The notes under the pieces were generated by a model, which searched no databases, was not told the DNA's origin, and saw only the letters and a list, made by a program, of their open reading frames with translations. The position numbers and the translations under genes were made by a program. Shown here piece after piece: positions 2,924 through 27,798 of a stretch of 64,000 bases of DNA. Positions within the stretch are counted from its first letter, which is position 1. Every line of letters starts with the position of its first letter. This DNA comes from Candidatus Micrarchaeota archaeon (GTDB lineage: Archaea; Micrarchaeota; Micrarchaeia; Micrarchaeales; CABMGC01). Where the stretch lies: positions 119,548 to 183,547 of the forward strand of contig JAJZOD010000010.1 in the NCBI GenBank assembly GCA_021852055.1, in the 5' to 3' direction.

Positions 2924-4081
2924 TTAACCGTTAAGGATCTGCGCATGTTTTACTGACTTGCCTGCAATGCGTTTCAATTTGTAGTCGCTGGACATAGATT
3001 TTATTACTTCAGGAAGGGCAGCTGTGCTCGGATTCTTTGAATTTATGCTGCATACATCCATGTAAGGCAGCAGAGAAAGCTCGTATGTGCCTATCTGCCT
3101 TGCAACTTTTATTATTTCTTCCTTATCAAATCCGGAAAGCGGCCGTATTATGGGATATTTTATCAAATAACCTTCTGAAAAAAGGTTCATAGGCGTCTGT
3201 GACGCTACCTGGCCTATGCTGTCTCCGGTGTATATAAGCTGTGCCCCTTCTTTGGCGGCTATTTTCTGTGCCACCAACAGCATGAAATGCTTCATCAGCA
3301 CAGTCTCGTATCTTCCGCTCCTTATGGCTGCAAGCTGGAAGTAATGTGAGGGCACAAGGTACATCTTATAATGCAGTGAGTACTCGTTGAGCTTCGAGGC
3401 TATATCAGTTATCTTTGAAAGCTCCTTTGCGCTTGCATCAGGATATCCGTACATGTGCACGTAAATAGGCATAAGGCCTCTCTTCATTGCATACCAGGCT
3501 GCAACAGGCGAGTCTATTCCTCCGGAAAGGAGCAGCACTGCTTTACCGCTGCTTCCTATCGGAAGACCGCCGGCACCCTTGGTGCTTCCTGTGCTGATAA
3601 ACGCGTTTTCTTTGGTGATGTTTATGTTTATCTCTGCATTAAAGTTCCTGTTTGACACTGCAATGCCGCGCTTTTTTGCATGCTCTGCTACTTCAGAGAT
3701 AACGTCCATAGAATTAAAATTCAGGCCCTTATATGACCTGTGGGACTGTATCCGCACCACAGAGTTGGAATCATATTTAGATAGGAATTTTGCTGCAAGT
3801 TTTTTGATAGATTTGAGCTCGGGTTTTGTTGCTTGCGATAATTCGAACCTGCTTATCCCGAATATGGTAGACAGCTTAATCTGTATTGCATTTATGTCAG
3901 AATTGGATCCAAGCCTTAAAAGCACCCTGTCGTATTCGCGAATTATCTTGACGTCTTCGCTGCTAAGCCGCGCCGAAATGTTGCTTATAAGCCTTTTTAT
4001 GTACTGGCCCCTGTTATTTCCCCTTAGCCACAATTCGCCGAACCGCACCGACACTACTGTCTCGTTCTCATCTAGCAGCAT
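2924..4081 (-). CDS. thiI: tRNA 4-thiouridine synthase ThiI (THUMP + PP-loop)
   Basis: VRFGELWLRG, LLSGGIDSPVAA, TGDSIGQVASQT and RPLSGFDKEEI. Start set at ATG 4081. Confidence 0.93.
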   Translation of the reverse strand: MLLDENETVVSVRFGELWLRGNNRGQYIKRLISNISARLSSEDVKIIREYDRVLLRLGSNSDINAIQIKLSTIFGISRFELSQATKPELKSIKKLAAKFLSKYDSNSVVRIQSHRSYKGLNFNSMDVISEVAEHAKKRGIAVSNRNFNAEININITKENAFISTGSTKGAGGLPIGSSGKAVLLLSGGIDSPVAAWYAMKRGLMPIYVHMYGYPDASAKELSKITDIASKLNEYSLHYKMYLVPSHYFQLAAIRSGRYETVLMKHFMLLVAQKIAAKEGAQLIYTGDSIGQVASQTPMNLFSEGYLIKYPIIRPLSGFDKEEIIKVARQIGTYELSLLPYMDVCSINSKNPSTAALPEVIKSMSSDYKLKRIAGKSVKHAQILNG

Positions 4082-4173
4082 GTTAAAGCCCTGGAATCTG
4101 CGCGGCGCAGGATATGGCTGAAAATAGCAGACAGACATAATGATTAAAAGAAAGCAGTTCATGTGGCTTATGC

Positions 4174-4320
4174 TTACTCATTTTCACGGTATTTCCTGTT
4201 TTGCAGAACATTCAAGCGATAGCATCTCTTGCTGCAGTAATACCTAATGACACCTGTCTTCTTGACGAAGATAAATCCTGTGCCTTGTTCTATCTCTGCT
4301 GTGCAGTATGTGCATTTCAT
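4174..4320 (-). CDS. rpl24e: 50S ribosomal protein L24e (48 aa, below ORF-track cutoff)
   Basis: Manual translation MKCTYCTAEIEQGTGFIFVKKTGVIRYYCSKRCYRLNVLQNRKYRENE*. Has CxxC..G.G....K..G....CSxKC and lies directly after S28e. Confidence 0.92.
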   Translation of the reverse strand: MKCTYCTAEIEQGTGFIFVKKTGVIRYYCSKRCYRLNVLQNRKYRENE

Positions 4321-4644
4321 TTATCTCGCCATTATCTTTTTGTCCTCTCTGCTTGTATCGGGAAGCCGTATTATGTCGCCTTTCTTTATCTTTCCGGCTA
4401 TGTTTCTTCGTATGACACGGCCTTTGTCCTTGCCTTCCATAATCTTGCACATCGCCTGCTTAATCTCTCCATAAATTCCTGTACGGCCGTGGACTACATC
4501 GACTACCTGCGCCAGCCATCCTTCAAATAGCTTATCATCGCCTGTGCCTGCTGGCCTCTGTTCCTCATGCTTGACCGCTTTTTCAGGCACGTTTGCTGTT
4601 GTGTTTTCGATTGCAGCTTTTTCGTTTTCTTCAGCTTTAGGCAT
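4321..4644 (-). CDS. rps28e: 30S ribosomal protein S28e with N-terminal extension
   Basis: AQVVDVVHGRTGIYGE...GRVIRRNIAGKIKKGDII core, in canonical L7Ae-S28e-L24e order. Confidence 0.9.
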   Translation of the reverse strand: MPKAEENEKAAIENTTANVPEKAVKHEEQRPAGTGDDKLFEGWLAQVVDVVHGRTGIYGEIKQAMCKIMEGKDKGRVIRRNIAGKIKKGDIIRLPDTSREDKKIMAR

Positions 4645-4673
4645 ATACCTCACAGGCTTAATTTATTTTGATA

Positions 4674-5159
4674 TCACTCTTTCTTCTCTGTCTTCTCGGC
4701 TCCGGCCTCGTGGCCTTTTGCCTTCTCGGCCTTCGGCTTCTCATGTTTTACTTCTGCATGTTTCGCTTCTGCGCCTGCCTTTTCTTGGGCTGGCTGCGAC
4801 TTGCCCGTTATGCGCGATACCACATCGGATATGGCAGCCTGAGCCTCGCCCTGTTTCTCTATGGCTACAGAAGAGCATGGAACATTCATGCCCAAGGCTT
4901 TTCCTAGATCCAGCTTTGCTGGGACATAAACATAGTTTATCTTTTTCTGCTCGCATAACTGCGGTATGTGCATGACTACTTCCTCAGGTTCAACATCTCC
5001 TGCTATGACTACAAGGGATGAAAGGCCACGCTCTACGCTTTTTGTTACCTCGTTGACGCCCTTTCTTACTGTGCCGCTCTGCCTGGCAAGCCTCACGGCT
5101 TCAAGTGCCTTGTCTGATACTTCTTTGCTTACTTCGAATTTCACATAAGATTTTGCCAT
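4674..5159 (-). CDS. rpl7ae: Ribosomal protein L7Ae with C-terminal extension
   Basis: VRKGVNEVTKSVERG, LVVIAGDVEPEEVVMHIP and LGKALG. Confidence 0.95.
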   Translation of the reverse strand: MAKSYVKFEVSKEVSDKALEAVRLARQSGTVRKGVNEVTKSVERGLSSLVVIAGDVEPEEVVMHIPQLCEQKKINYVYVPAKLDLGKALGMNVPCSSVAIEKQGEAQAAISDVVSRITGKSQPAQEKAGAEAKHAEVKHEKPKAEKAKGHEAGAEKTEKKE

Positions 5160-5223
5160 TTTATTACCTCATCTCATTGGTTTGTCTTAGCATATACTTG
5201 TACATAATATTAAACCTTTCCTG

Positions 5224-7416
5224 TCAGTCCATAAAATCGCTAGCTTTCGGAGGTTCAGGAGGCTGGCCTTTGCGCTTGCGTATCTCGCGCACTACCTTGT
5301 CCTGCAGCTCTTTAGGCAGCTTTTCATAGCCTGCATACTCCGGGTACCATATTGCTTTTCCACTGGTTATTCCGCGTATCTCATTCGAGAAGCCTTTTAT
5401 CACTTCGGCAACAGGCATCTTTGCTATTATTGTTGCCTGCTCATTCTCCTGCTGTATTTCGAGCACCTGTCCGCGTTTTCCCTGCACAAACGTTATTATC
5501 TCCGATAAATAGTCCTGTGGTATGTTTATCGTGAACCTCTGCTTAGGCTCCATCAGGCTTACACCTGAAGTGAGCATGCCTGCATATATCGGATGCTTTA
5601 TTGCGGGTATGACCTGTGCAGGGCCCCTGTGAACAGGATCCTCGTGAATCTTTGCATCTGTTATGAGCACCTTGAGCCCAGATACACGCTCTCTGGCAAG
5701 AGGGCCGTCCCTTACCGATTCTTCGAATCCCTTTATTAGAAGCTCCATTACCTCGTTAAGGTACTGCACTCCGTGTGTCGCATCTATAAGCATGCTGTTG
5801 TTTGAAACATCTACAAGGCCCTTTGCCTCCTCCCTTGACATGCCTGCCTTCACAAGCACCTCTACATGCGCTTTGCCTTTCGGCTTGCCTTCACGTATCT
5901 CGCCTGATTCTATAAGCTCGACAACGCTTGGTTCAAGAGGCTTTATGTCTACATAAAACCGCGAGTGCCTGTTCTGCGTCTTGCCCTCTACGTTCTTTGT
6001 CTCATTCTCTATCGTTTCCCTGTAGAGCACTATCGGTTCGCTTGTTGTTATTGGTATTTTGTAATCGTCGCGTATCTTTGTCTCTATTATCTCTAGGTGC
6101 AGCTCTCCCATGCCGCTGACAAGATGCTCACCTGTTTCCTGGTTGAGCTCTACACGTATTGTCTGGTCCTCTTTCGAAAGTTCGCGCAGCGCCTCTATAA
6201 GCTTCATTAGGTCGCGAGTGTCCTTTGCATCTATCGCCTTTGTCACCACAGGCTGCGAGTAGTGCTTTATCTGCTCAAAAGGCTCTATGTTGTTTTCGCT
6301 TACTGTGTCGCCTATTGAAACATTCTTGAGGCCTACTACTGCAGCTATGTTTCCTGCAGAGATGCTTTCGACAGGAACCCTCTCCGGACCCATATATATG
6401 CCTACCTGCGACACCCTCTGCTGGTCAGGAATTCCTGTAGCATATATCAGTGTGCCTTTCTTTATAGTGCCTGAGAACACCCTGCCTATTGCTATCTCGC
6501 CGCTGTGCTGGTCATTAGCAACTCCGAATATAATCATATTGACTTTCGCATCTGGATTTACAGTTGTCATTGCCTTGCCGTCTTCTGTTGCAAGGTCGCC
6601 ATGCCATAGCCTCGGGAGGCGGTACGGCTGCGCTTCGCTCGGGCTGGGCAGGTGCTCTATCATCATGGATAAGGTAGCTTCGTCTATGGGCGCAACCTGC
6701 TGCAGCTTCGCTTCGTCCTGCTCCTTGGTAAGCTTGAATATGTCTTTGAATGTCACCTTGTATTTCTGCATTATTTTAGTTGAGATTGCCCATTTCTTAT
6801 ACGCAGATCCGAAGCAGACACTGCCGTTCTCAACGCTTACTGCCCACTTCTCCTTGTACTCTTCTGGCGCAAAGCGCGTAATCATCTTGTTTATGTCATT
6901 GATAAGCTTAAGGAGGCGCTCGAACGTCTGCTCCTCTGTAAGCCTTAACTCGTTAAGAAGCCGATCTGTTTTGTTGACAAAAAGGACTGGCTTTGCGCGC
7001 TCCTGGAGTGCCTGGCGCAGCACAGTCTCTGTCTGTGGCATTATGCCCTCTACAGGATCCACGACAAGCACTACACCGTCAACTGCGCGCATGGATCTCG
7101 TAACGTGCCCTCCGAAGTCGACGTGCCCCGGAGTATCTATAAGGTTTATTATGTAGTCCTTGTCATTGTAGTTAAACGACAGAGAGATGTCTGCAGACTT
7201 TATCGTCATTCTCCTGTCTTTTTCTATAGCTTCGTAGTTTGTGTACAGCACATCCCCGGCAACGCTTTTTGATATTATGCCTGCACGCGCTAGAAGCGAG
7301 TCGGTAAGCGTTGTCTTTCCGTGGTGAACATGGGCTATTATAGCAACGTTGCGTATCCTTTCTGTATCGCGCATTATCTTTACTACTTCTTCAGCCACGA
7401 ACTCTTTTCTTACCAT
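5224..7416 (-). CDS. fusA: Archaeal elongation factor EF-2
   Basis: IDTPGHVDFGG, NKTD, GMGELHLE and the diphthamide loop IHEDPVHRGPAQ. G1 reads AHVHHGKTT. Confidence 0.96.
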   Translation of the reverse strand: MVRKEFVAEEVVKIMRDTERIRNVAIIAHVHHGKTTLTDSLLARAGIISKSVAGDVLYTNYEAIEKDRRMTIKSADISLSFNYNDKDYIINLIDTPGHVDFGGHVTRSMRAVDGVVLVVDPVEGIMPQTETVLRQALQERAKPVLFVNKTDRLLNELRLTEEQTFERLLKLINDINKMITRFAPEEYKEKWAVSVENGSVCFGSAYKKWAISTKIMQKYKVTFKDIFKLTKEQDEAKLQQVAPIDEATLSMMIEHLPSPSEAQPYRLPRLWHGDLATEDGKAMTTVNPDAKVNMIIFGVANDQHSGEIAIGRVFSGTIKKGTLIYATGIPDQQRVSQVGIYMGPERVPVESISAGNIAAVVGLKNVSIGDTVSENNIEPFEQIKHYSQPVVTKAIDAKDTRDLMKLIEALRELSKEDQTIRVELNQETGEHLVSGMGELHLEIIETKIRDDYKIPITTSEPIVLYRETIENETKNVEGKTQNRHSRFYVDIKPLEPSVVELIESGEIREGKPKGKAHVEVLVKAGMSREEAKGLVDVSNNSMLIDATHGVQYLNEVMELLIKGFEESVRDGPLARERVSGLKVLITDAKIHEDPVHRGPAQVIPAIKHPIYAGMLTSGVSLMEPKQRFTINIPQDYLSEIITFVQGKRGQVLEIQQENEQATIIAKMPVAEVIKGFSNEIRGITSGKAIWYPEYAGYEKLPKELQDKVVREIRKRKGQPPEPPKASDFMD

Positions 7417-13598: not shown

Positions 13599-15050
13599 AT
13601 GGCAGAAGACCAGGCAGACGAACTCACTAAAATAAGGAAGGCAGGGATAGACCCGTATGCACATAGATTTGACAGAAACGCAACAGCAGCGGAGATTATA
13701 AAAAATTACTCCGACATAAAGGCTGATGAGAAGGTAGAAAAAACGAAGGTTCTTACAGCCGGAAGGATACGCTCGAAGAGGAAACACGGCGGCCTTGTGT
13801 TTGTTCACATTGAAGACTTCTCAGGCAGGATACAAATATTTATTAGCGCCAGCGACGTAAGCAAGGCCGATTTCGAGCTCATGGAAAGGCTAAATGTGGG
13901 AGATTTTATAGGTGTGGAAGGATGCGTTATGAAGACTTCGAGAGGCGAACTGAGCATACTTGCAAAAAAGATAACACTGCTTACCAAAGCCCTGCTGCCA
14001 TTGCCCTCTGAATGGTACGGGCTGAAGGATGAAGAGCTGCGGTACAGGAAAAGGTACCTTGACATGCTTCTGAATCCTGAAGTAAAGGATATGCTTGTCA
14101 AGAAATCGGTATTCTGGAGATCTATGAGGGACTTCATGATATCAAAGGGATTTATAGAGGTATACACTCCAGTTCTGGAGAATACAACGGGCGGTGCAGA
14201 TGCAAAGCCGTTTATCACACACCACAACACACTTGACATAGACGTATACCTTAGAATATCTACTGGTGAACTGTGGCAGAAGATGCTTCTTGTCGGCGGT
14301 TTTGAGAAAACGTTTGAGATAGGCAGGATATTCAGGAACGAGGGAATGGATGCCGATCATGCACAGGACTACAATCAATTGGAGTTTTACTGGGCATACG
14401 CAGATTACAAAGACAACATGAAGCTTGTAGAGGAGATGTACAAGTACGTGATACAGCAAACCTTTGGCACCATGAAGTTTCATATACGCGGCACAGACGT
14501 AGATTTTGGAAAGAGATGGAAGGAGTATGACTATACAGGCGAGATCAAGAAAGGCACAGGGATAGACATAAACCACACAACTGCAAAAGAGTGTATTGCG
14601 CGTTTAGATGAGCTCGGTGTCGAATACGAAAAGAAGGGCATGAACCTGGAGAGGGCCGTGGATAGTTTATGGAAGCACTGCAGGAAAAAGATAAACGAAC
14701 CGGGATTTCTTGTGAACCACCCTTTGATAGTATCGCCTCTTGCAAAAAAAATGGAGGGCAATCCAAAGCTTGTAGAAAGGTTTCAGGTAATTTTTGCAGG
14801 TACTGAAGCAGGTAACGGTTATTCTGAGCTGAACGACCCTATAGACCAGGAACAGAGATTCATGGAGCAGGCGAAGCTCAGGACTGCAGGCGACGAGGAG
14901 GCACAGATGTTTGCGAAGGATTTCGTCGAGGCATTGAAGTACGGCATGCCTCCTGCAACAGGGTTCGGGGTGTCTGATAGGTTGTTCTCGCTGCTCATGG
15001 ACAAATCAATAAGGGAGTGCACTACATTTCCACTGCTGCGGCCAGAGTAG
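13599..15050 (+). CDS. lysS: Lysyl-tRNA synthetase, class II
   Basis: RYRKRYLD, GGADAKPFITHHN, YEIG-like FEIGRIFRNEG, ERFQ, NGYSELNDP and YGMPPATGFGVSDRL. Confidence 0.96.
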   Translation: MAEDQADELTKIRKAGIDPYAHRFDRNATAAEIIKNYSDIKADEKVEKTKVLTAGRIRSKRKHGGLVFVHIEDFSGRIQIFISASDVSKADFELMERLNVGDFIGVEGCVMKTSRGELSILAKKITLLTKALLPLPSEWYGLKDEELRYRKRYLDMLLNPEVKDMLVKKSVFWRSMRDFMISKGFIEVYTPVLENTTGGADAKPFITHHNTLDIDVYLRISTGELWQKMLLVGGFEKTFEIGRIFRNEGMDADHAQDYNQLEFYWAYADYKDNMKLVEEMYKYVIQQTFGTMKFHIRGTDVDFGKRWKEYDYTGEIKKGTGIDINHTTAKECIARLDELGVEYEKKGMNLERAVDSLWKHCRKKINEPGFLVNHPLIVSPLAKKMEGNPKLVERFQVIFAGTEAGNGYSELNDPIDQEQRFMEQAKLRTAGDEEAQMFAKDFVEALKYGMPPATGFGVSDRLFSLLMDKSIRECTTFPLLRPE

Positions 15051-19253: not shown

Positions 19254-19507
19254 GTACGTCATATAGCTTTGAAAAGTAGCACATAAAAGCTTTACTACAG
19301 CAATATCAATAGGGTGCATATAATGAAAAATAAAGCCAAAATTAGCCACCTTGTGGCGATTATAGACTTAAGCGCCAAGCCAGATGCCGAAACAGGGAAG
19401 GGCACAGAGAACGCATTGCAGAAGCGTAGGCGCAGCACAAAAGCAAGCAAAGAATAGAAGCGTAAATGTCGCATTGCTTATAAAACAAAAAACAAGCAGT
19501 GGTGTAG

Positions 19508-21490
19508 TTGGATAACGACTTTTCATCAATAAACAAGCTAGAAGGCGAGCGCTTCTCAAAAAGCCACATCCGTATTATGCTTATAGCTGGCATGGGGTTT
19601 TTTACCGATGCATATGACTTATTTATAATCGGCATAGTGCTGCTGATGATAAAGCCGATATTTAACCTGTCTGCAACACAGATAGGGCTTGTTGCAAGCG
19701 CAGCCCTTTTTGGCGCAGTCATAGGCCCGGTAATATTCGGTAGCATAGGCGACAGGTTTGGAAGAAAGCCAGTGTACTGGATAACTATAGTCATCTTGAT
19801 AATAGGAGCACTTGGATCTGCAACATCAATGAACTACATACAGCTCATAATATGGAGGTTTATTTTAGGGGTTGGCATAGGCGGCGATTATCCGCTCAGC
19901 GCCACAATAGTAGCGGAGTATGCTAACAGGAAAGACAGGGGGAAGATGGTCGCTTCTACCTTTGCCATGCAGGGATTCGGCCTTGTGGCGGGAGTCGGTA
20001 TAGGATTTTTGCTCCTTAATACAAGCCTGCCCATTACTATAATATGGAGGCTTCTTCTTGCATTTGGGGCCATACCTACATTGCTTATACTTAAGCAAAG
20101 GACAAAACTTTATGAGACGCCGTGGTATAAATTTGCGAAGAACTCCGGCACCAAGGCGCGAGCTGCCGGAGCTCAGACCGGAACAGGCGCAGTACTACCG
20201 AAGATAGGCTTTAGCAGGTTTCTGAGAAACAGGTGGCAGATAGTGCTTGGCACTTCAGTAACATGGTTTCTGATGGACATCTCTTACTACGGAACCACAA
20301 TATTTACGCCTTATCTCGCATCTTTGTTCGGATTTACTGGACTATACGCAGCAGTGCAAGCCTCTGCACTTATACTGATAATTGCCGCAGTTCCTGGCTA
20401 CTGGGTTGCAGTCGCATTGATAGACAAGCAGGGCAGAAAATCGATGCAGACTATAGGATTCCTTGTTATGGGAATATGCTTTACAATACTGTTTTTCTCA
20501 GGCAGCGCGATTCTCGCAGGATCTGCAGTGATGTTTTTTGCAATATATGGCCTGTCGTTCTTCTTTACTAATTACGGCCCGAACACCACCACATATGTTT
20601 ATCCTACAGAACTTTATCCGACCTCGGTGCGTGCAAGGGGGCACGGGATAGCGTCGATGAGCGGCAAGCTTGGTGCAGCCCTCTCGGCACTCTTCTTTCC
20701 GTTGTTGCTTTTGAATATTGGCAAGTTCAACCTTATAGGGCTTCTCGGCGCAGTTGCATTTACAGGTGCCATATTTACTCTTCTTCTGCTGCCTGAAACA
20801 AAAAGGAGGTCGCTTACTGAAACGTCAATGGAGAGCGAGCTTCTCATAATAACCGCAGAGCTGAACAAGGAGTTCAGCTCTTTATTGGATGCCATATACA
20901 AAACTTCGTCGATGTTGAGCAATGAATTTTCCAGCAGTCGCATTGACAATGCAAAATGCTTCAGGATAGCGGAGCATAATGAACATGCAGCAGATTCAAA
21001 GGTCCACAGCATTATAAACTACGTATCGAATACGAGGATAAATACACGTATATACACTGAGATATCACACCTTGCAAGGAAACTTGACGATATAATAGAT
21101 GGGGAAAAAACCCTCGCATCAAGGCTCTATGTATACAACATAGGCTCCGCAGACGCGTTTATGAAGAAGTTTGCAGACATAAACTTGAAATGCGTATCGC
21201 TTGTCACTGAAGGGGTAAGGCTGATGGCATATCTTCCTGAGGGCAAGAGTTATGAAGAGAGTGTCTTTAGGGTGTATAACAATGCAGCCAAATTGGAGAG
21301 CTCTGCCGATGACCTGCTCCGGGAAGCGTTAAGGAATGTTATGAACATGAAAGACCCTGTGCGCATAATGAAATACAAGGAGGTTTATGAGGACCTGGAG
21401 TCTATAACAGACAGATGCATGAACTCGCTCGAAGTAGTAAACGACATAGCCCTCAGGCACATGTACGGCCCTTACAGAAGAAATGACTGA
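19508..21490 (+). CDS. MFS phosphate:H+ symporter (Pho84/PHS-like) fused to C-terminal DUF47/PhoU-like domain
   Basis: GFFTDAYDLF, GIGGDYPLSATI and NYGPNTTTYVYPTELYPT..RARGHG. C-terminal EHAAD...LDDIID...ESSADDL...KEVYEDLESITDRC. Confidence 0.85.
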   Translation: MDNDFSSINKLEGERFSKSHIRIMLIAGMGFFTDAYDLFIIGIVLLMIKPIFNLSATQIGLVASAALFGAVIGPVIFGSIGDRFGRKPVYWITIVILIIGALGSATSMNYIQLIIWRFILGVGIGGDYPLSATIVAEYANRKDRGKMVASTFAMQGFGLVAGVGIGFLLLNTSLPITIIWRLLLAFGAIPTLLILKQRTKLYETPWYKFAKNSGTKARAAGAQTGTGAVLPKIGFSRFLRNRWQIVLGTSVTWFLMDISYYGTTIFTPYLASLFGFTGLYAAVQASALILIIAAVPGYWVAVALIDKQGRKSMQTIGFLVMGICFTILFFSGSAILAGSAVMFFAIYGLSFFFTNYGPNTTTYVYPTELYPTSVRARGHGIASMSGKLGAALSALFFPLLLLNIGKFNLIGLLGAVAFTGAIFTLLLLPETKRRSLTETSMESELLIITAELNKEFSSLLDAIYKTSSMLSNEFSSSRIDNAKCFRIAEHNEHAADSKVHSIINYVSNTRINTRIYTEISHLARKLDDIIDGEKTLASRLYVYNIGSADAFMKKFADINLKCVSLVTEGVRLMAYLPEGKSYEESVFRVYNNAAKLESSADDLLREALRNVMNMKDPVRIMKYKEVYEDLESITDRCMNSLEVVNDIALRHMYGPYRRND

Positions 21491-22609: not shown

Positions 22610-24487
22610 TCACATCCTTCTTCTGGCTCTGCCATTCTCCCTTCCGCTGCTTCTCGGTTGATTGCTGAACTTGCTGATTTTTATAAGTTTGTTTATTCTT
22701 GCAAGCATTATAAGGATTATAATCAGAAATATCAACAACAGCACTGCGAATACTTCCAACTCTCCATGTATCCCAACTACGCTCACACCTAATGCCATTA
22801 TCTGTCGTGACTCGTTGTTGAACGCATCAGTAAGCAGAATACTCGATTCAGGCGTCGAACTCGACGTAACTGTTGAAGTACTGTTTCCAGGTATAAGGTT
22901 TTTAGAGATATAACCGTTTATTCCCGAAAGGTACGATGCCAGATTTGCAAGGGAGTATGCCGAACTTATGTAACCCATCTTAAGCGTTGAGTTCTTTGTG
23001 TAGTTTGCCTGCTGCAGGTAAAACATTGCAGAATCTGCAAACATGGCTGGCCATACACCATTGGTTGCATTGTACGCAACTCCAGCTATATGTGTCTGCA
23101 TAGCCGTGGAGTAGTTTGATGGACCTGCAGAAGCCAAAGCCTTTGCGTATGTTGCACCGTATAATGCTGCCGAATATTCGCCCTGGCTGTAGTCCTGCTT
23201 CGCTGCAGTAAGATATATGCCGGGATACTGCTCGGAGATGTTAATAATTTTCATAGCAGCATTCTTCATTGAAGAGGATTCATACACAGGTGAGCCGCCG
23301 ATCTCTGAGGCTATGTTGTACATCTCGTTTGCAGCGCTGCACCATGCCTGTGCCTCTGCCACGCTTCCCATAGCTTCAATTATGGTGTCGGTAGACGCAG
23401 AACTGTTTATTTCAGGAATAGATTCATTAAGTGTGGCTATTCCGAGGGACTGACGGAGTTCACCGCCAACTACATACTCGTAGTTTGCAGCAGTCAGCTG
23501 CGGAGGCGACAGCAGTGCACAGTAATCAGAAACATTTGTTGCGAGAGCAATTGCACTCTGCTTCGTGTATGAATTGGAGTGCGCAAGCGTATAAGAAGTT
23601 GCATATTCTACAAATGCAAGGTCAGCACCAGTATATAAATAACCTTTATCCGAAATAGTCGAGTATTGTTTGAGGTTGCTGAGCAGCTGGTCCTTTGCTG
23701 ATGTGAAGTTTGACGGTATCATCTCTGTTTCGTTAGTTACATATCCAAGTGTATAATTTGTAAGCTGGACGAAATAACTTTCATTGCAGTTTTTGCATTG
23801 GATTGATGAGTTGTGTATTGAAGTGTTGTAATACTGTGTTAGGTTTATTCTTAACATGCCTGGCGTCAGATGGCCTGAGGCTCTTGTGTAAGGGAGTGCC
23901 TGCGACAGATTGGACACCTCAAACAGCGGAATCCCGAACATCTGCTGTGATATGTAGTACAACAGGTCTTCTGTGCTTCCGTTCTGGACTGTTGGCACAA
24001 GTATGTAATTCATGCCGTTTTGCTTGGCTGCCTGGGCTTTGTCATATATGCCGCCTATCGGACCAACAGAGCCGTTGTTTGTTATAGTGCCGGTTACAGT
24101 AAAATTAGAATATAATTGGGCATTTTTAAGCGCGTAAACTGCAAGTAGGGTAAGTGCGAGACCGCCGCTTGGACCGGATACATTTACCGAGTTTTCTATG
24201 TAATATGTGAACTTGTATTTCGATTCGTTTAATCCTAGATATGATGCTGCTGCAATTGCAGCACTCTGTGCCGAAGCTATGGTGCTGCTTCCAACAACGC
24301 TGGGCCCTTTTATATCAACTGTGCCGTTGCCGCTTGTAATGTTGAGCTGTATGGTCGTGAGAACCCCTAGATCCTCGTTCTGCAAAACAGCAGGAGCGTG
24401 AATCTGCGTCGTGTATGCAAACGCAACTGAAGGAAGCGCTGCAAATAAAATTACAAATATGGCCAAGATGGTTTTTCTAGTCTCCAT
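22610..24487 (-). CDS. Secreted, C-terminally anchored S16 (Lon-like) serine protease
   Basis: Signal peptide, VSGPSGG catalytic Ser, GPIGGIYDKA Lys, and a C-terminal TM followed by a basic tail. Confidence 0.85.
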   Translation of the reverse strand: METRKTILAIFVILFAALPSVAFAYTTQIHAPAVLQNEDLGVLTTIQLNITSGNGTVDIKGPSVVGSSTIASAQSAAIAAASYLGLNESKYKFTYYIENSVNVSGPSGGLALTLLAVYALKNAQLYSNFTVTGTITNNGSVGPIGGIYDKAQAAKQNGMNYILVPTVQNGSTEDLLYYISQQMFGIPLFEVSNLSQALPYTRASGHLTPGMLRINLTQYYNTSIHNSSIQCKNCNESYFVQLTNYTLGYVTNETEMIPSNFTSAKDQLLSNLKQYSTISDKGYLYTGADLAFVEYATSYTLAHSNSYTKQSAIALATNVSDYCALLSPPQLTAANYEYVVGGELRQSLGIATLNESIPEINSSASTDTIIEAMGSVAEAQAWCSAANEMYNIASEIGGSPVYESSSMKNAAMKIINISEQYPGIYLTAAKQDYSQGEYSAALYGATYAKALASAGPSNYSTAMQTHIAGVAYNATNGVWPAMFADSAMFYLQQANYTKNSTLKMGYISSAYSLANLASYLSGINGYISKNLIPGNSTSTVTSSSTPESSILLTDAFNNESRQIMALGVSVVGIHGELEVFAVLLLIFLIIILIMLARINKLIKISKFSNQPRSSGRENGRARRRM

Positions 24488-26257: not shown

Positions 26258-26499
26258 TTCATTTTCTCTTTATTTTTCCTTTTTTATTATTTTAATCTTT
26301 TGGCTTTTCCTTTTTTCTTTGATTAGTTTGATTTTGCATTCTTCTATTCTGTAGCTAAAAATTTATTATTTGTTCTCTTGCATCTCCAGGCATAGGTGTC
26401 ATAGGTTGTTTTCATGACTATAAATGGTGGGAGTTGGCAAGCCTTCGGTACACGATAGCTATAAATAAGCCTTTTCATCCAATTAATACTGGTGCTTTA

Positions 26500-27798
26500 T
26501 TGTCAAATGAGTACAGGAGCCATTATATTTCAGAGCTCAGTGCCCAGCTTGCAGGAAAAGAGGTACGCCTTGCAGGCTGGATACACGAAGTAAGGGACAT
26601 AGGCAACATTGTGTTTCTGCTACTTAGAGACCATTCCGGTATAATACAAGTGACTGCGAAGAAAGACAGCACAGATGACGCAGTGATGAAGAGCATGCTT
26701 CTTCCCAAAGAAAGCGTAGTTTCAGTTCTGGGAACTGTTGTTGAGAGCAAGCAGTCAAAAAAAGGCATAGAGATAAAACCAAATTCCATACGAAACCTGA
26801 ATCCGCTTAATGCAACTATTCCTTTTGAGGTAACTGGCAAAGTGCCTGCAGACCTTGACGTAAGATTAAACTACAGGTATGTTGATCTGCGAAGGCTGCA
26901 CACAACAGCAATATTCAATATAGAATCAACAATACTAGGAAGTTTCAGAAGCATTCTTTCAAAGGACGGCTTTACAGAGATAAGGACGCCGTCGCTAGTC
27001 AAGGAGGCGACAGAGGGAGGTGCTGATGTATTTAAGGTTGATTATTTCGGAGATGCCGCATATCTTGCGCAGTCTCCGCAGCTTTACAAGCAGCTTGCGG
27101 TTATAGGCGGATTTGACAGAGTATTTATGGTAGTTCCCATATTCAGGGCAGAAAAACACAATACGACGTTCCACCTGAATGAGATAACGCAGATGGATAT
27201 AGAGATGGGATTTGCTGACCATAAAGATGCCATAAAAGTGCTAAAGAAGGTCGTATTAGGTATTAAAAAAAGTGTATTTAAGAACAACAGCGCAGATGCC
27301 GAAACGCTCGGAATAAAGGATTCAGAGGGCAGGATAGTTGAGGTCACATACAAAAAAGCAATCGAGAAACTTAACTCTAACGGCAGGCGCATAGAGTTTG
27401 GCGAGGACTTCACCAGAGAAGATGAAGCAGCGCTTAGCAGGATTTTCGGAGACCTTATTGTTTTAAAGGAATATCCTACAATGTTGAGGGCATTTTATAC
27501 AATGCCCAGCTCGGAGGATCCTGAAGTGTCCAACAGCTTCGATTTTATATACAAAGGCACTGAGATATGCAGCGGAGCGCAGCGCATACACGAACCGCAT
27601 GTTTTAGTAGATGCAATTAAAAAACGCGGCAGCGACCCGAAATCATTTGAATTCTACATAAATGCATTTAAAGACGGAGCACCGCCACATGCCGGCTGGT
27701 CCATCGGCCTTGAACGCTTTGCAATGAAGATGACAGGTATGGAGAATATACGTGAGGTATCGATGTTTCCACGTGACAGGACAAGGCTTACCCCGTGA
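26500..27798 (+). CDS. aspS: Aspartyl-tRNA synthetase (archaeal type)
   Basis: GWIHEVRDIG, RLNYRYVDLR, YLAQSPQLYKQ, EICSGAQRIH and PPHAGWSIGLER. TTG start after a GGTG SD. Confidence 0.93.
   Translation: MSNEYRSHYISELSAQLAGKEVRLAGWIHEVRDIGNIVFLLLRDHSGIIQVTAKKDSTDDAVMKSMLLPKESVVSVLGTVVESKQSKKGIEIKPNSIRNLNPLNATIPFEVTGKVPADLDVRLNYRYVDLRRLHTTAIFNIESTILGSFRSILSKDGFTEIRTPSLVKEATEGGADVFKVDYFGDAAYLAQSPQLYKQLAVIGGFDRVFMVVPIFRAEKHNTTFHLNEITQMDIEMGFADHKDAIKVLKKVVLGIKKSVFKNNSADAETLGIKDSEGRIVEVTYKKAIEKLNSNGRRIEFGEDFTREDEAALSRIFGDLIVLKEYPTMLRAFYTMPSSEDPEVSNSFDFIYKGTEICSGAQRIHEPHVLVDAIKKRGSDPKSFEFYINAFKDGAPPHAGWSIGLERFAMKMTGMENIREVSMFPRDRTRLTP

Follow-up and report, generated by a model that had tools for sequence, protein, structure and literature searches.

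A Pho84-like phosphate carrier with a fused DUF47 domain in acidophilic archaea

Among bacteria, accessory regulators of phosphate uptake keep closely to particular transporters. PstSCAB is present in 99.4% of the bacterial genomes with PhoU, and PitA in 97.8% of those that hold the DUF47 protein PitR, the two genes being adjacent; in the 2026 survey from which these figures come, which covered bacteria and single-domain PitR only, each accessory clade was tied to one transporter family (PMC13170248). Here, we describe a gene from a 64,000-nucleotide stretch of DNA (hereafter, the window) of an acid-loving archaeon of the Micrarchaeota. The gene encodes a 660-residue protein in which a carrier of the major facilitator superfamily (MFS), of the PHS kind of phosphate symporters, is followed in frame by a complete DUF47 domain. 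The novelty lies in the pairing of this PhoU-fold accessory domain with this type of phosphate transporter, in its form as a fusion, and in its occurrence in archaea.

The known systems closest to this protein each resemble it in part. PitR (Staphylococcus aureus; PF01865 and TIGR00153; structures 3l39, 2olt, and 2iiu) shares its fold and its acidic motifs with the fused domain, and both are tied to a phosphate transporter. PitR, however, is a free protein of about 205–210 residues whose gene lies beside one of the PiT family, whereas the fused domain is covalently joined to a carrier of an unrelated family, the MFS; we class it as DUF47 but not as a canonical PitR. PhoU (PF01895), the companion of PstSCAB, has a related six-helix fold, and its likeness to the fused domain is a structural similarity of lower rank only. 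The carrier part shares with the PHS symporters (TC 2.A.1.9; yeast Pho84, Piriformospora PiPT, and plant PHT1) the 12-helix fold, about 30% sequence identity, the substrate pocket, and the proton relay. Eukaryotic and bacterial PHS members stop shortly after helix 12, whereas the fusion protein continues into DUF47.

Two groups of transporters with attached domains are also comparable. NptA, a bacterial Na+/phosphate cotransporter with a fused PhoU domain, follows the same design, with a secondary carrier and a PhoU-fold domain in one chain, but its carrier belongs to PF02690 and its accessory domain to PF01895, while the archaeal fusion combines an MFS carrier with PF01865. In eukaryotic SPX transporters (vacuolar SPX-MFS proteins, Pho87/Pho90, and XPR1), a helical cytoplasmic sensor domain on a phosphate carrier tunes flux to the phosphate status of the cell. 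Their likeness to the fusion is a functional analogy only, as the SPX domain differs from the fused DUF47 domain in its fold, in its ligand (inositol pyrophosphates), and in its N-terminal position. The preliminary description of this sequence had drawn the comparison with SPX transporters, and it is a fair one, though NptA offers the closer precedent.

Architecture of the fusion protein

In Pfam, the N-terminal part of the protein matches Sugar_tr at residues 25–439 with an E-value of 1.2e-49 and MFS_1 with an E-value of 4e-38. The best NCBIfam family by far is TIGR00887 (phosphate:H+ symporter), at 306 bits; since this model was built on eukaryotic members and the score lies under the equivalog cut-off of 610, we file the carrier as a divergent PHS-type protein and not as an equivalog. 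Its closest solved relatives by sequence are OsPHT1;11 from rice (E 1.4e-64) and the fungal PiPT (E 1.5e-56), with sugar and organic-ion carriers trailing far behind. A full-length AlphaFold model, built with 32 relatives, has a mean predicted local distance difference test score (pLDDT) of 86.8 and displays 12 long helices in the carrier. In Foldseek, the model comes closest to PiPT and OsPHT1;11, at target template modelling (TM) scores of 0.79–0.83.

The phosphate pocket of PiPT consists of Y150, F174, Q177, W320, D324, Y328, N431, and K459, and its proton path of D45, D48, E108, R139, and D149 (PMC6761603). In the window protein, the pocket positions are occupied, in the same order, by Y128, F152, Q155, W253, D257, Y261, N359, and K387, and those of D45, D48, R139, and D149 by D34, D37, R117, and D127, so that 12 of the 13 residues are retained, including four of the five in the relay. 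The eight pocket residues show no substitution in any of 41 fused and 36 unfused relatives, and 11 of the 12 retained residues are invariant throughout these 77 proteins; D127 is replaced by Glu in three fused rows. The position of PiPT E108 holds Thr in the window protein and in 37 of the 41 fused proteins, and the rice transporter PHT1;11 likewise has Thr at the aligned position. On this strong sequence evidence, the carrier is predicted to be a proton-coupled phosphate transporter.

The carrier part closes with a PETK..SLxE motif, a tail that it shares with plant PHT1 and that leads straight into the first DUF47 helix. P429, E430, L436, S440, and E442 are invariant in this tether. In the full-length model, pLDDT drops to 59–74 over residues ~431–450, while both flanking domains are confident. 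In MFS carriers with 12 helices, the C-terminus faces the cytoplasm, which places the DUF47 domain at the inner face of the carrier.

For this domain, PF01865 (PhoU_div/DUF47) gives a match at residues 452–637 that only just clears the cut-off of 24.4 bits, scoring 25.0 bits when the whole protein is scanned and 28.4 bits for the domain by itself. Pfam showed no match to PF01895 (PhoU) repeats in the fusion protein and reported no SPX family in it. We aligned the C-terminal regions of 35 fused loci with that of the window protein, and the resulting profile of 36 domains (alignment A2) turns the weak single-sequence DUF47 match into a decisive one, matching 3l39 over nearly its full length with an E-value of 1.2e-34, and 2iiu/2olt with an E-value of 1.4e-5. 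The first of these, 3l39, is the DUF47 crystal structure of Bacteroides BT4638, a "putative PhoU-like phosphate regulatory protein". A model of the domain alone (pLDDT 93.4, predicted TM score 0.90) shows six long helices; its best matches in the PDB are 3l39, 2olt, and 2iiu, with TM scores of 0.66–0.79 in Foldseek, and the PhoU structures 1t72, 2i0m, 1sum, and 4q25 rank next.

Each three-helix repeat bears two acidic motifs; in alignments A1 and A2, these four are invariant or show at least 90% conservation. The motifs of repeat 1 align with EREGD and MDDVID of 3l39, those of repeat 2 with ENQADD and KEI..ELE..TD. The identity of the 36 C-terminal domains to that of the window protein is only 26–41%, with every acidic motif retained, which argues for selection on the fusion.

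As to where the domain came from, a derivation from the PiT-linked DUF47 protein of the same genome can be rejected, given a sequence identity of only 23%. Free TIGR00153-type DUF47 proteins of ~208 residues are much closer to the fused domain (E 1e-46 to 1e-36). An exhaustive profile search collected 7,237 DUF47-type representatives, and the best 150 of these are mostly free proteins of ~208 residues named TIGR00153 or DUF47, about ten being fused; the fused domain thus resembles an ordinary DUF47 that has acquired a new partner. A further combination of domains was seen in P0150, a 451-residue protein standing for a cluster of eight metagenome proteins, in which two PhoU (PF01895) repeats and a C-terminal DUF47 (PF01865) share one chain.

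No stop or frameshift separates the carrier from the DUF47 part in the window, and the frame is equally continuous in dozens of relatives. An identical 660-residue protein is recorded on nine contigs; a word-indexed protein search yielded more than 100 full-length relatives at 39–77% identity, almost all with both Pfam domains, and species genomes contain 40 intact fused frames. The preliminary description, which had read the gene as a full DUF47-like domain fused in frame to a PHS-family carrier, is therefore borne out by hidden Markov model (HMM) matches, profile, predicted structure, and frame alike, and its C-terminal part proved to be DUF47/PhoU-like by each of the first three.

The gene starts with TTG. 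An in-frame TAG directly precedes this codon (19505–19507), and no other start codon lies ahead of the conserved N-terminus (H20), which leaves TTG as the sole start that retains this N-terminus. Reading the sequence upstream, we note a TATA-like TTATAAAA at 19478–19485, 23 nt 5' of the TTG, and GGTG at 19501–19504, which may represent a promoter and start context. Promoter and terminator scans found nothing exceeding shuffled expectation.

Distribution and genomic setting

In a search of one genome per GTDB species, the loci kept comprise 43 fused ones, all of them archaeal (Micrarchaeota, Thermoplasmata, and Thermoprotei-type metagenome-assembled genomes (MAGs)). The source names of the more than 100 full-length relatives include Micrarchaeota/ARMAN, "Marsarchaeota", Thermoplasmata, and Thermoprotei (Tardisphaera). 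Three of the 43 loci show frame breaks, which in L029 and L054 fall inside the carrier part. In the third, L055 from archaeon UBA168, the carrier (3449–5275) and DUF47 (5229–5927) lie in different frames with an overlap of 47 nt; a sequencing error is the probable cause, with a naturally split form as the alternative.

Among the nearest unfused carriers, 5 belong to Thermoplasmata and the other 31 are mostly bacterial, often from acidophile lineages (Mesoaciditogaceae, Acidobacteriaceae, Actinomycetes, and Ktedonobacteraceae). None of these 36 carriers has a DUF47 domain, and no DUF47 gene lies within 4 kb of any of them; a split form, with an unfused carrier and an adjacent DUF47 gene, thus has no representative there (0 of 36). 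A tree built from the carrier part groups the fused proteins in the archaeal half and places the window protein within a well-supported clade of 20, mostly Micrarchaeota. The fused label needs three changes on this tree, only one of which is forced by well-supported branches; a single origin of the fusion is possible, being neither shown nor excluded by the tree.

Within the phylum, a sample of 301 genomes has the fused form confined to the window's own order, where it occurs in 21 of the 141 genomes sampled (7 in the window's family and 14 in a sister family); many genomes in these samples are incomplete. Some of the taxon labels are unreliable, as is apparent from near-identical copies under different names. 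Those at L012 and L014 come from MAGs labelled Marsarchaeota and Micrarchaeota, and the fused gene of a MAG labelled Methanothrix sp. (L019) is almost identical to that of Candidatus Micrarchaeum sp. A_DKE (L021), the "Methanothrix" contig probably being mis-binned.

The genome from which the window derives (1.02 Mb, 90% complete) also holds a classic DUF47+PiT pair on another contig (contig 14, ~18.1–19.7 kb), in which a 210-residue DUF47 protein is followed by a 307-residue PiT (PHO4). This pair and the bacterial survey figures agree with the starting premise of the preliminary description, that DUF47 proteins are normally separate partners of PiT and PhoU a partner of Pst. PhoU (PF01895) was not found in this 90%-complete genome, nor was PstB above its cut-off, hence no Pst, and no PiT gene adjoins the fusion gene in the window.

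PiT accompanies the fusion in each of the seven genomes of the window's family that carry it in the 141-genome sample, as against only 1 of 14 such genomes in the sister family. That sister family includes five good genomes, two of which are single contigs, that have the fused gene as their only DUF47 match; no PiT was found in them, and no PstB scored above its cut-off. With no PiT and no other DUF47 protein, the domain cannot serve PiT in trans in these five genomes and must act in cis, and no phosphate importer other than the fusion is recognisable in them.

The window genome has a single HisKA match, a 766-residue GAF-PAS-HisKA-HATPase kinase, and a single Response_reg match, a 404-residue response regulator with an unassigned output region. 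Both are encoded on contig 2, with a 347-residue gene without family between them on the opposite strand. The two genes are far from any phosphate gene, and the kinase does not have a PhoR-like layout.

No partner gene is conserved across the fusion-bearing clades, an analysis weakened by long shadow frames in the GC-rich Thermoplasmata loci. In six Thermoplasmata loci, a convergent gene directly adjoins the fused gene and encodes an AbrB/SpoVT-like domain with two PhoU repeats. Through this layout, which is that of the archaeal "phosphate uptake regulator", the fusion is connected with phosphate control in the Thermoplasmata clade; the window genome has no such gene. The coordinates of all these features are collected in Table 1.

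Table 1. Features of the fusion gene, its surroundings, and related loci (window positions unless a locus is named)
Feature	Position	Strand	Basis or remark
MFS(PHS)-DUF47 fusion gene, 660 aa, TTG start, TGA stop	19508..21490	+	uninterrupted 660-codon frame
Putative archaeal promoter and start context	19478..19507	+	predicted from a reading of the sequence
12-helix MFS carrier, PHS kind (Pho84/PiPT/PHT1), residues 1-442	19508..20833	+	Pfam, NCBIfam, structure matches
Span of phosphate-pocket and proton-relay residues	19607..20668	+	HMMER alignment to PiPT
Short tether from helix 12 to DUF47 domain, residues 428-452; no long linker	20789..20863	+	pLDDT 59-74
Cytoplasmic DUF47/PhoU_div (PitR-like) domain, residues 445-657, six helices as two three-helix repeats	20840..21478	+	HMM, profile, model
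Repeat-1 acidic motifs E492-H-x-A-D496 (20981-20995) and D527-D-x-x-D531 (21086-21100)	20981..21100	+	conservation in A1, A2
Repeat-2 acidic motifs E597-N-x-A-D601 (21296-21310) and K624..Y627-E628..E631..D635..D646 (21377-21445)	21296..21445	+	conservation in A1, A2
DUF47 gene, window genome	L001:1471-2100	+	directly consecutive with PiT gene
PiT gene, window genome	L001:2117-3037	+	directly consecutive with DUF47 gene
GAF-PAS-HisKA-HATPase kinase gene, window genome	L092:2363-4660	+	only HisKA match
Response regulator gene, window genome	L092:5833-7044	+	only Response_reg match
AbrB/SpoVT-PhoU gene, Thermoplasmata	L050:6007-7200	-	homologues in L037, L041, L044, L046, L048
Class II aminoacyl-tRNA synthetase gene	13599-15050	+	tRNA-synt_2 and OB anticodon-binding domain
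Class II aminoacyl-tRNA synthetase gene	26434-27798	+	tRNA-synt_2 and OB anticodon-binding domain
Gene of 625-aa protein with Lon_C domain	22610-24487	-	Pfam, residues 43-190

Proposed function and alternatives

We propose that the protein probably imports phosphate together with protons, under the control of a PitR-like brake of its own. The PHS-kind carrier would bring phosphate in by proton coupling, and its cytoplasmic C-terminus passes, after a tether of ~10 residues, into a DUF47 domain that would read the phosphate status of the cell by binding phosphate or metal-phosphate species at its acidic motifs. When internal phosphate is high, the tethered domain would slow or lock the carrier. 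Such a brake would guard a small acidophile, with its large inward proton gradient, against phosphate overload, and would provide this control without a separate PhoU/PhoR circuit. The coupling of PhoU-fold clades to transporters and the precedent of NptA (PMC13170248) suggest sensing and braking of this kind, as do the short tether, the acidic motifs, and the genomes in which the domain has no other partner. That neither PhoU nor Pst was found in the 90%-complete window genome also speaks for this reading. The preliminary description had already spoken of a self-regulating importer. The importer part of this claim is strengthened, the carrier being PHS-like down to its pocket; self-regulation is what we infer, with support from the genomes in which the fusion is both the sole DUF47 protein and the sole importer.

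Several observations weigh against a brake on import. The effect measured for DUF47/PitR in bacteria is on a two-component system and not on flux. The TIGR00887 score of the carrier stays below the equivalog cut-off. The spread of the fusion is patchy, with none found on searching four further species genomes of the genus, and the one histidine kinase and one response regulator of the window genome leave room for a signalling output.

An output of this kind would make the protein a transceptor, whose carrier imports phosphate while the DUF47 domain reports transport to a kinase or transcription factor, with no gating. In bacteria, PhoU and PitR do report to PhoR, and loss of PitR or of the PhoU domain of NptA in S. 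aureus alters PhoPR-dependent expression (PMC13170248); the kinase and response regulator of the window genome and the AbrB/SpoVT-PhoU gene at the six Thermoplasmata loci would fit such a role as well. However, the kinase is not PhoR-like and is distant from the phosphate genes, no neighbour is conserved across the fusion clades, the window genome has no PF01895 protein, and these minimal genomes have very few regulators, so that we consider a transceptor unlikely. The carrier could also work in the opposite direction, as a valve that exports phosphate or metal-phosphate, for example upon polyphosphate breakdown under copper stress, with the DUF47 domain sensing metal. The acidic motifs of the PhoU fold bind metal in some PhoU crystal structures, and YjbB of E. 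coli carries a PhoU domain. This NptA-like protein does not suffice for the import of phosphate (PMC13170248), and Pho84-like carriers of acidophilic archaea have been proposed to export metal-phosphate, being copper-induced in Metallosphaera sedula, although the paper in question does not mention a DUF47 domain (PMC5859850). The pocket and proton relay are nevertheless those of importers, proton symport drives uptake when the outside is acidic, and several genomes have no other recognisable phosphate importer; an efflux valve is accordingly a distinctly improbable reading.

The phosphate label itself might come from homology only, and the cargo might be another anion such as arsenate, sulfate, or an organic phosphate. 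This would agree with the sub-threshold TIGR00887 score and with one database entry that calls a relative a "putative sialic acid transporter". On the other hand, no fused relative departs from PiPT at any of the eight pocket positions, every one of the closest solved structures is a phosphate transporter, and the fused partner domain comes from a phosphate-linked family, which leaves a different cargo with slightly less probability again than efflux. Two neighbouring genes joined by a sequencing or assembly error, a notion to which the frame breaks in L029, L054, and L055 lend some colour, have a negligible probability: the window frame has no stop, and the nine contigs with identical protein, the more than 100 fused relatives from many studies, and the 40 intact frames, coming as they do from independent assemblies, rule out such an artefact.

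Returning to the importer with a built-in brake, we put forward tentatively a wider proposal, on which we would not insist. A single polypeptide may here make up the whole phosphate-homeostasis system, as importer, sensor, and brake, of genome-reduced acidophilic archaea without Pst, PhoU, PiT, or a PhoR-type circuit, and may at the same time represent a fourth pairing of accessory domain and transporter.

Surroundings of the gene and significance

The neighbours of the fusion gene in the window are unrelated to phosphate; they comprise a divergent UbiA prenyltransferase gene and genes for a replication factor C (RFC) small subunit and a Lon-type protease. In the 625-residue protein encoded at 22610-24487, the Lon_C proteolytic domain is all that Pfam sees, the other ~430 residues being unassigned. 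The window also contains two genes for class II aminoacyl-tRNA synthetases (Asp/Asn/Lys type), 11 kb apart, both with tRNA-synt_2 and an OB (oligonucleotide/oligosaccharide-binding) anticodon-binding domain.

Precomputed Pfam annotations of public proteins already display the two domains together. Literature searches on DUF47/PhoU_div with MFS or archaea, on archaeal Pho84-like proteins, and on a Micrarchaeum phosphate transporter returned no description of the fusion.

How PhoU-fold proteins sense phosphate and act on transporters is a long-standing question, usually studied with separate proteins in multi-part bacterial circuits. As the fusion demonstrates, members of the PitR clade also occur with transporters other than PiT, and this type of regulation now reaches into archaea. 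With a DUF47 domain in one chain with a structurally well-understood carrier of the PiPT/PHT1 type, it offers a defined 1:1 system for biochemistry and cryo-electron microscopy. If the protein is indeed a complete homeostasis system, it would break the rule of one transporter family per PhoU clade and would be the simplest known system in which to study the mechanism of a PhoU-fold regulator in a single purified protein. For these DPANN archaea, the fusion is probably the main route of phosphate entry, and in some genomes the only one.

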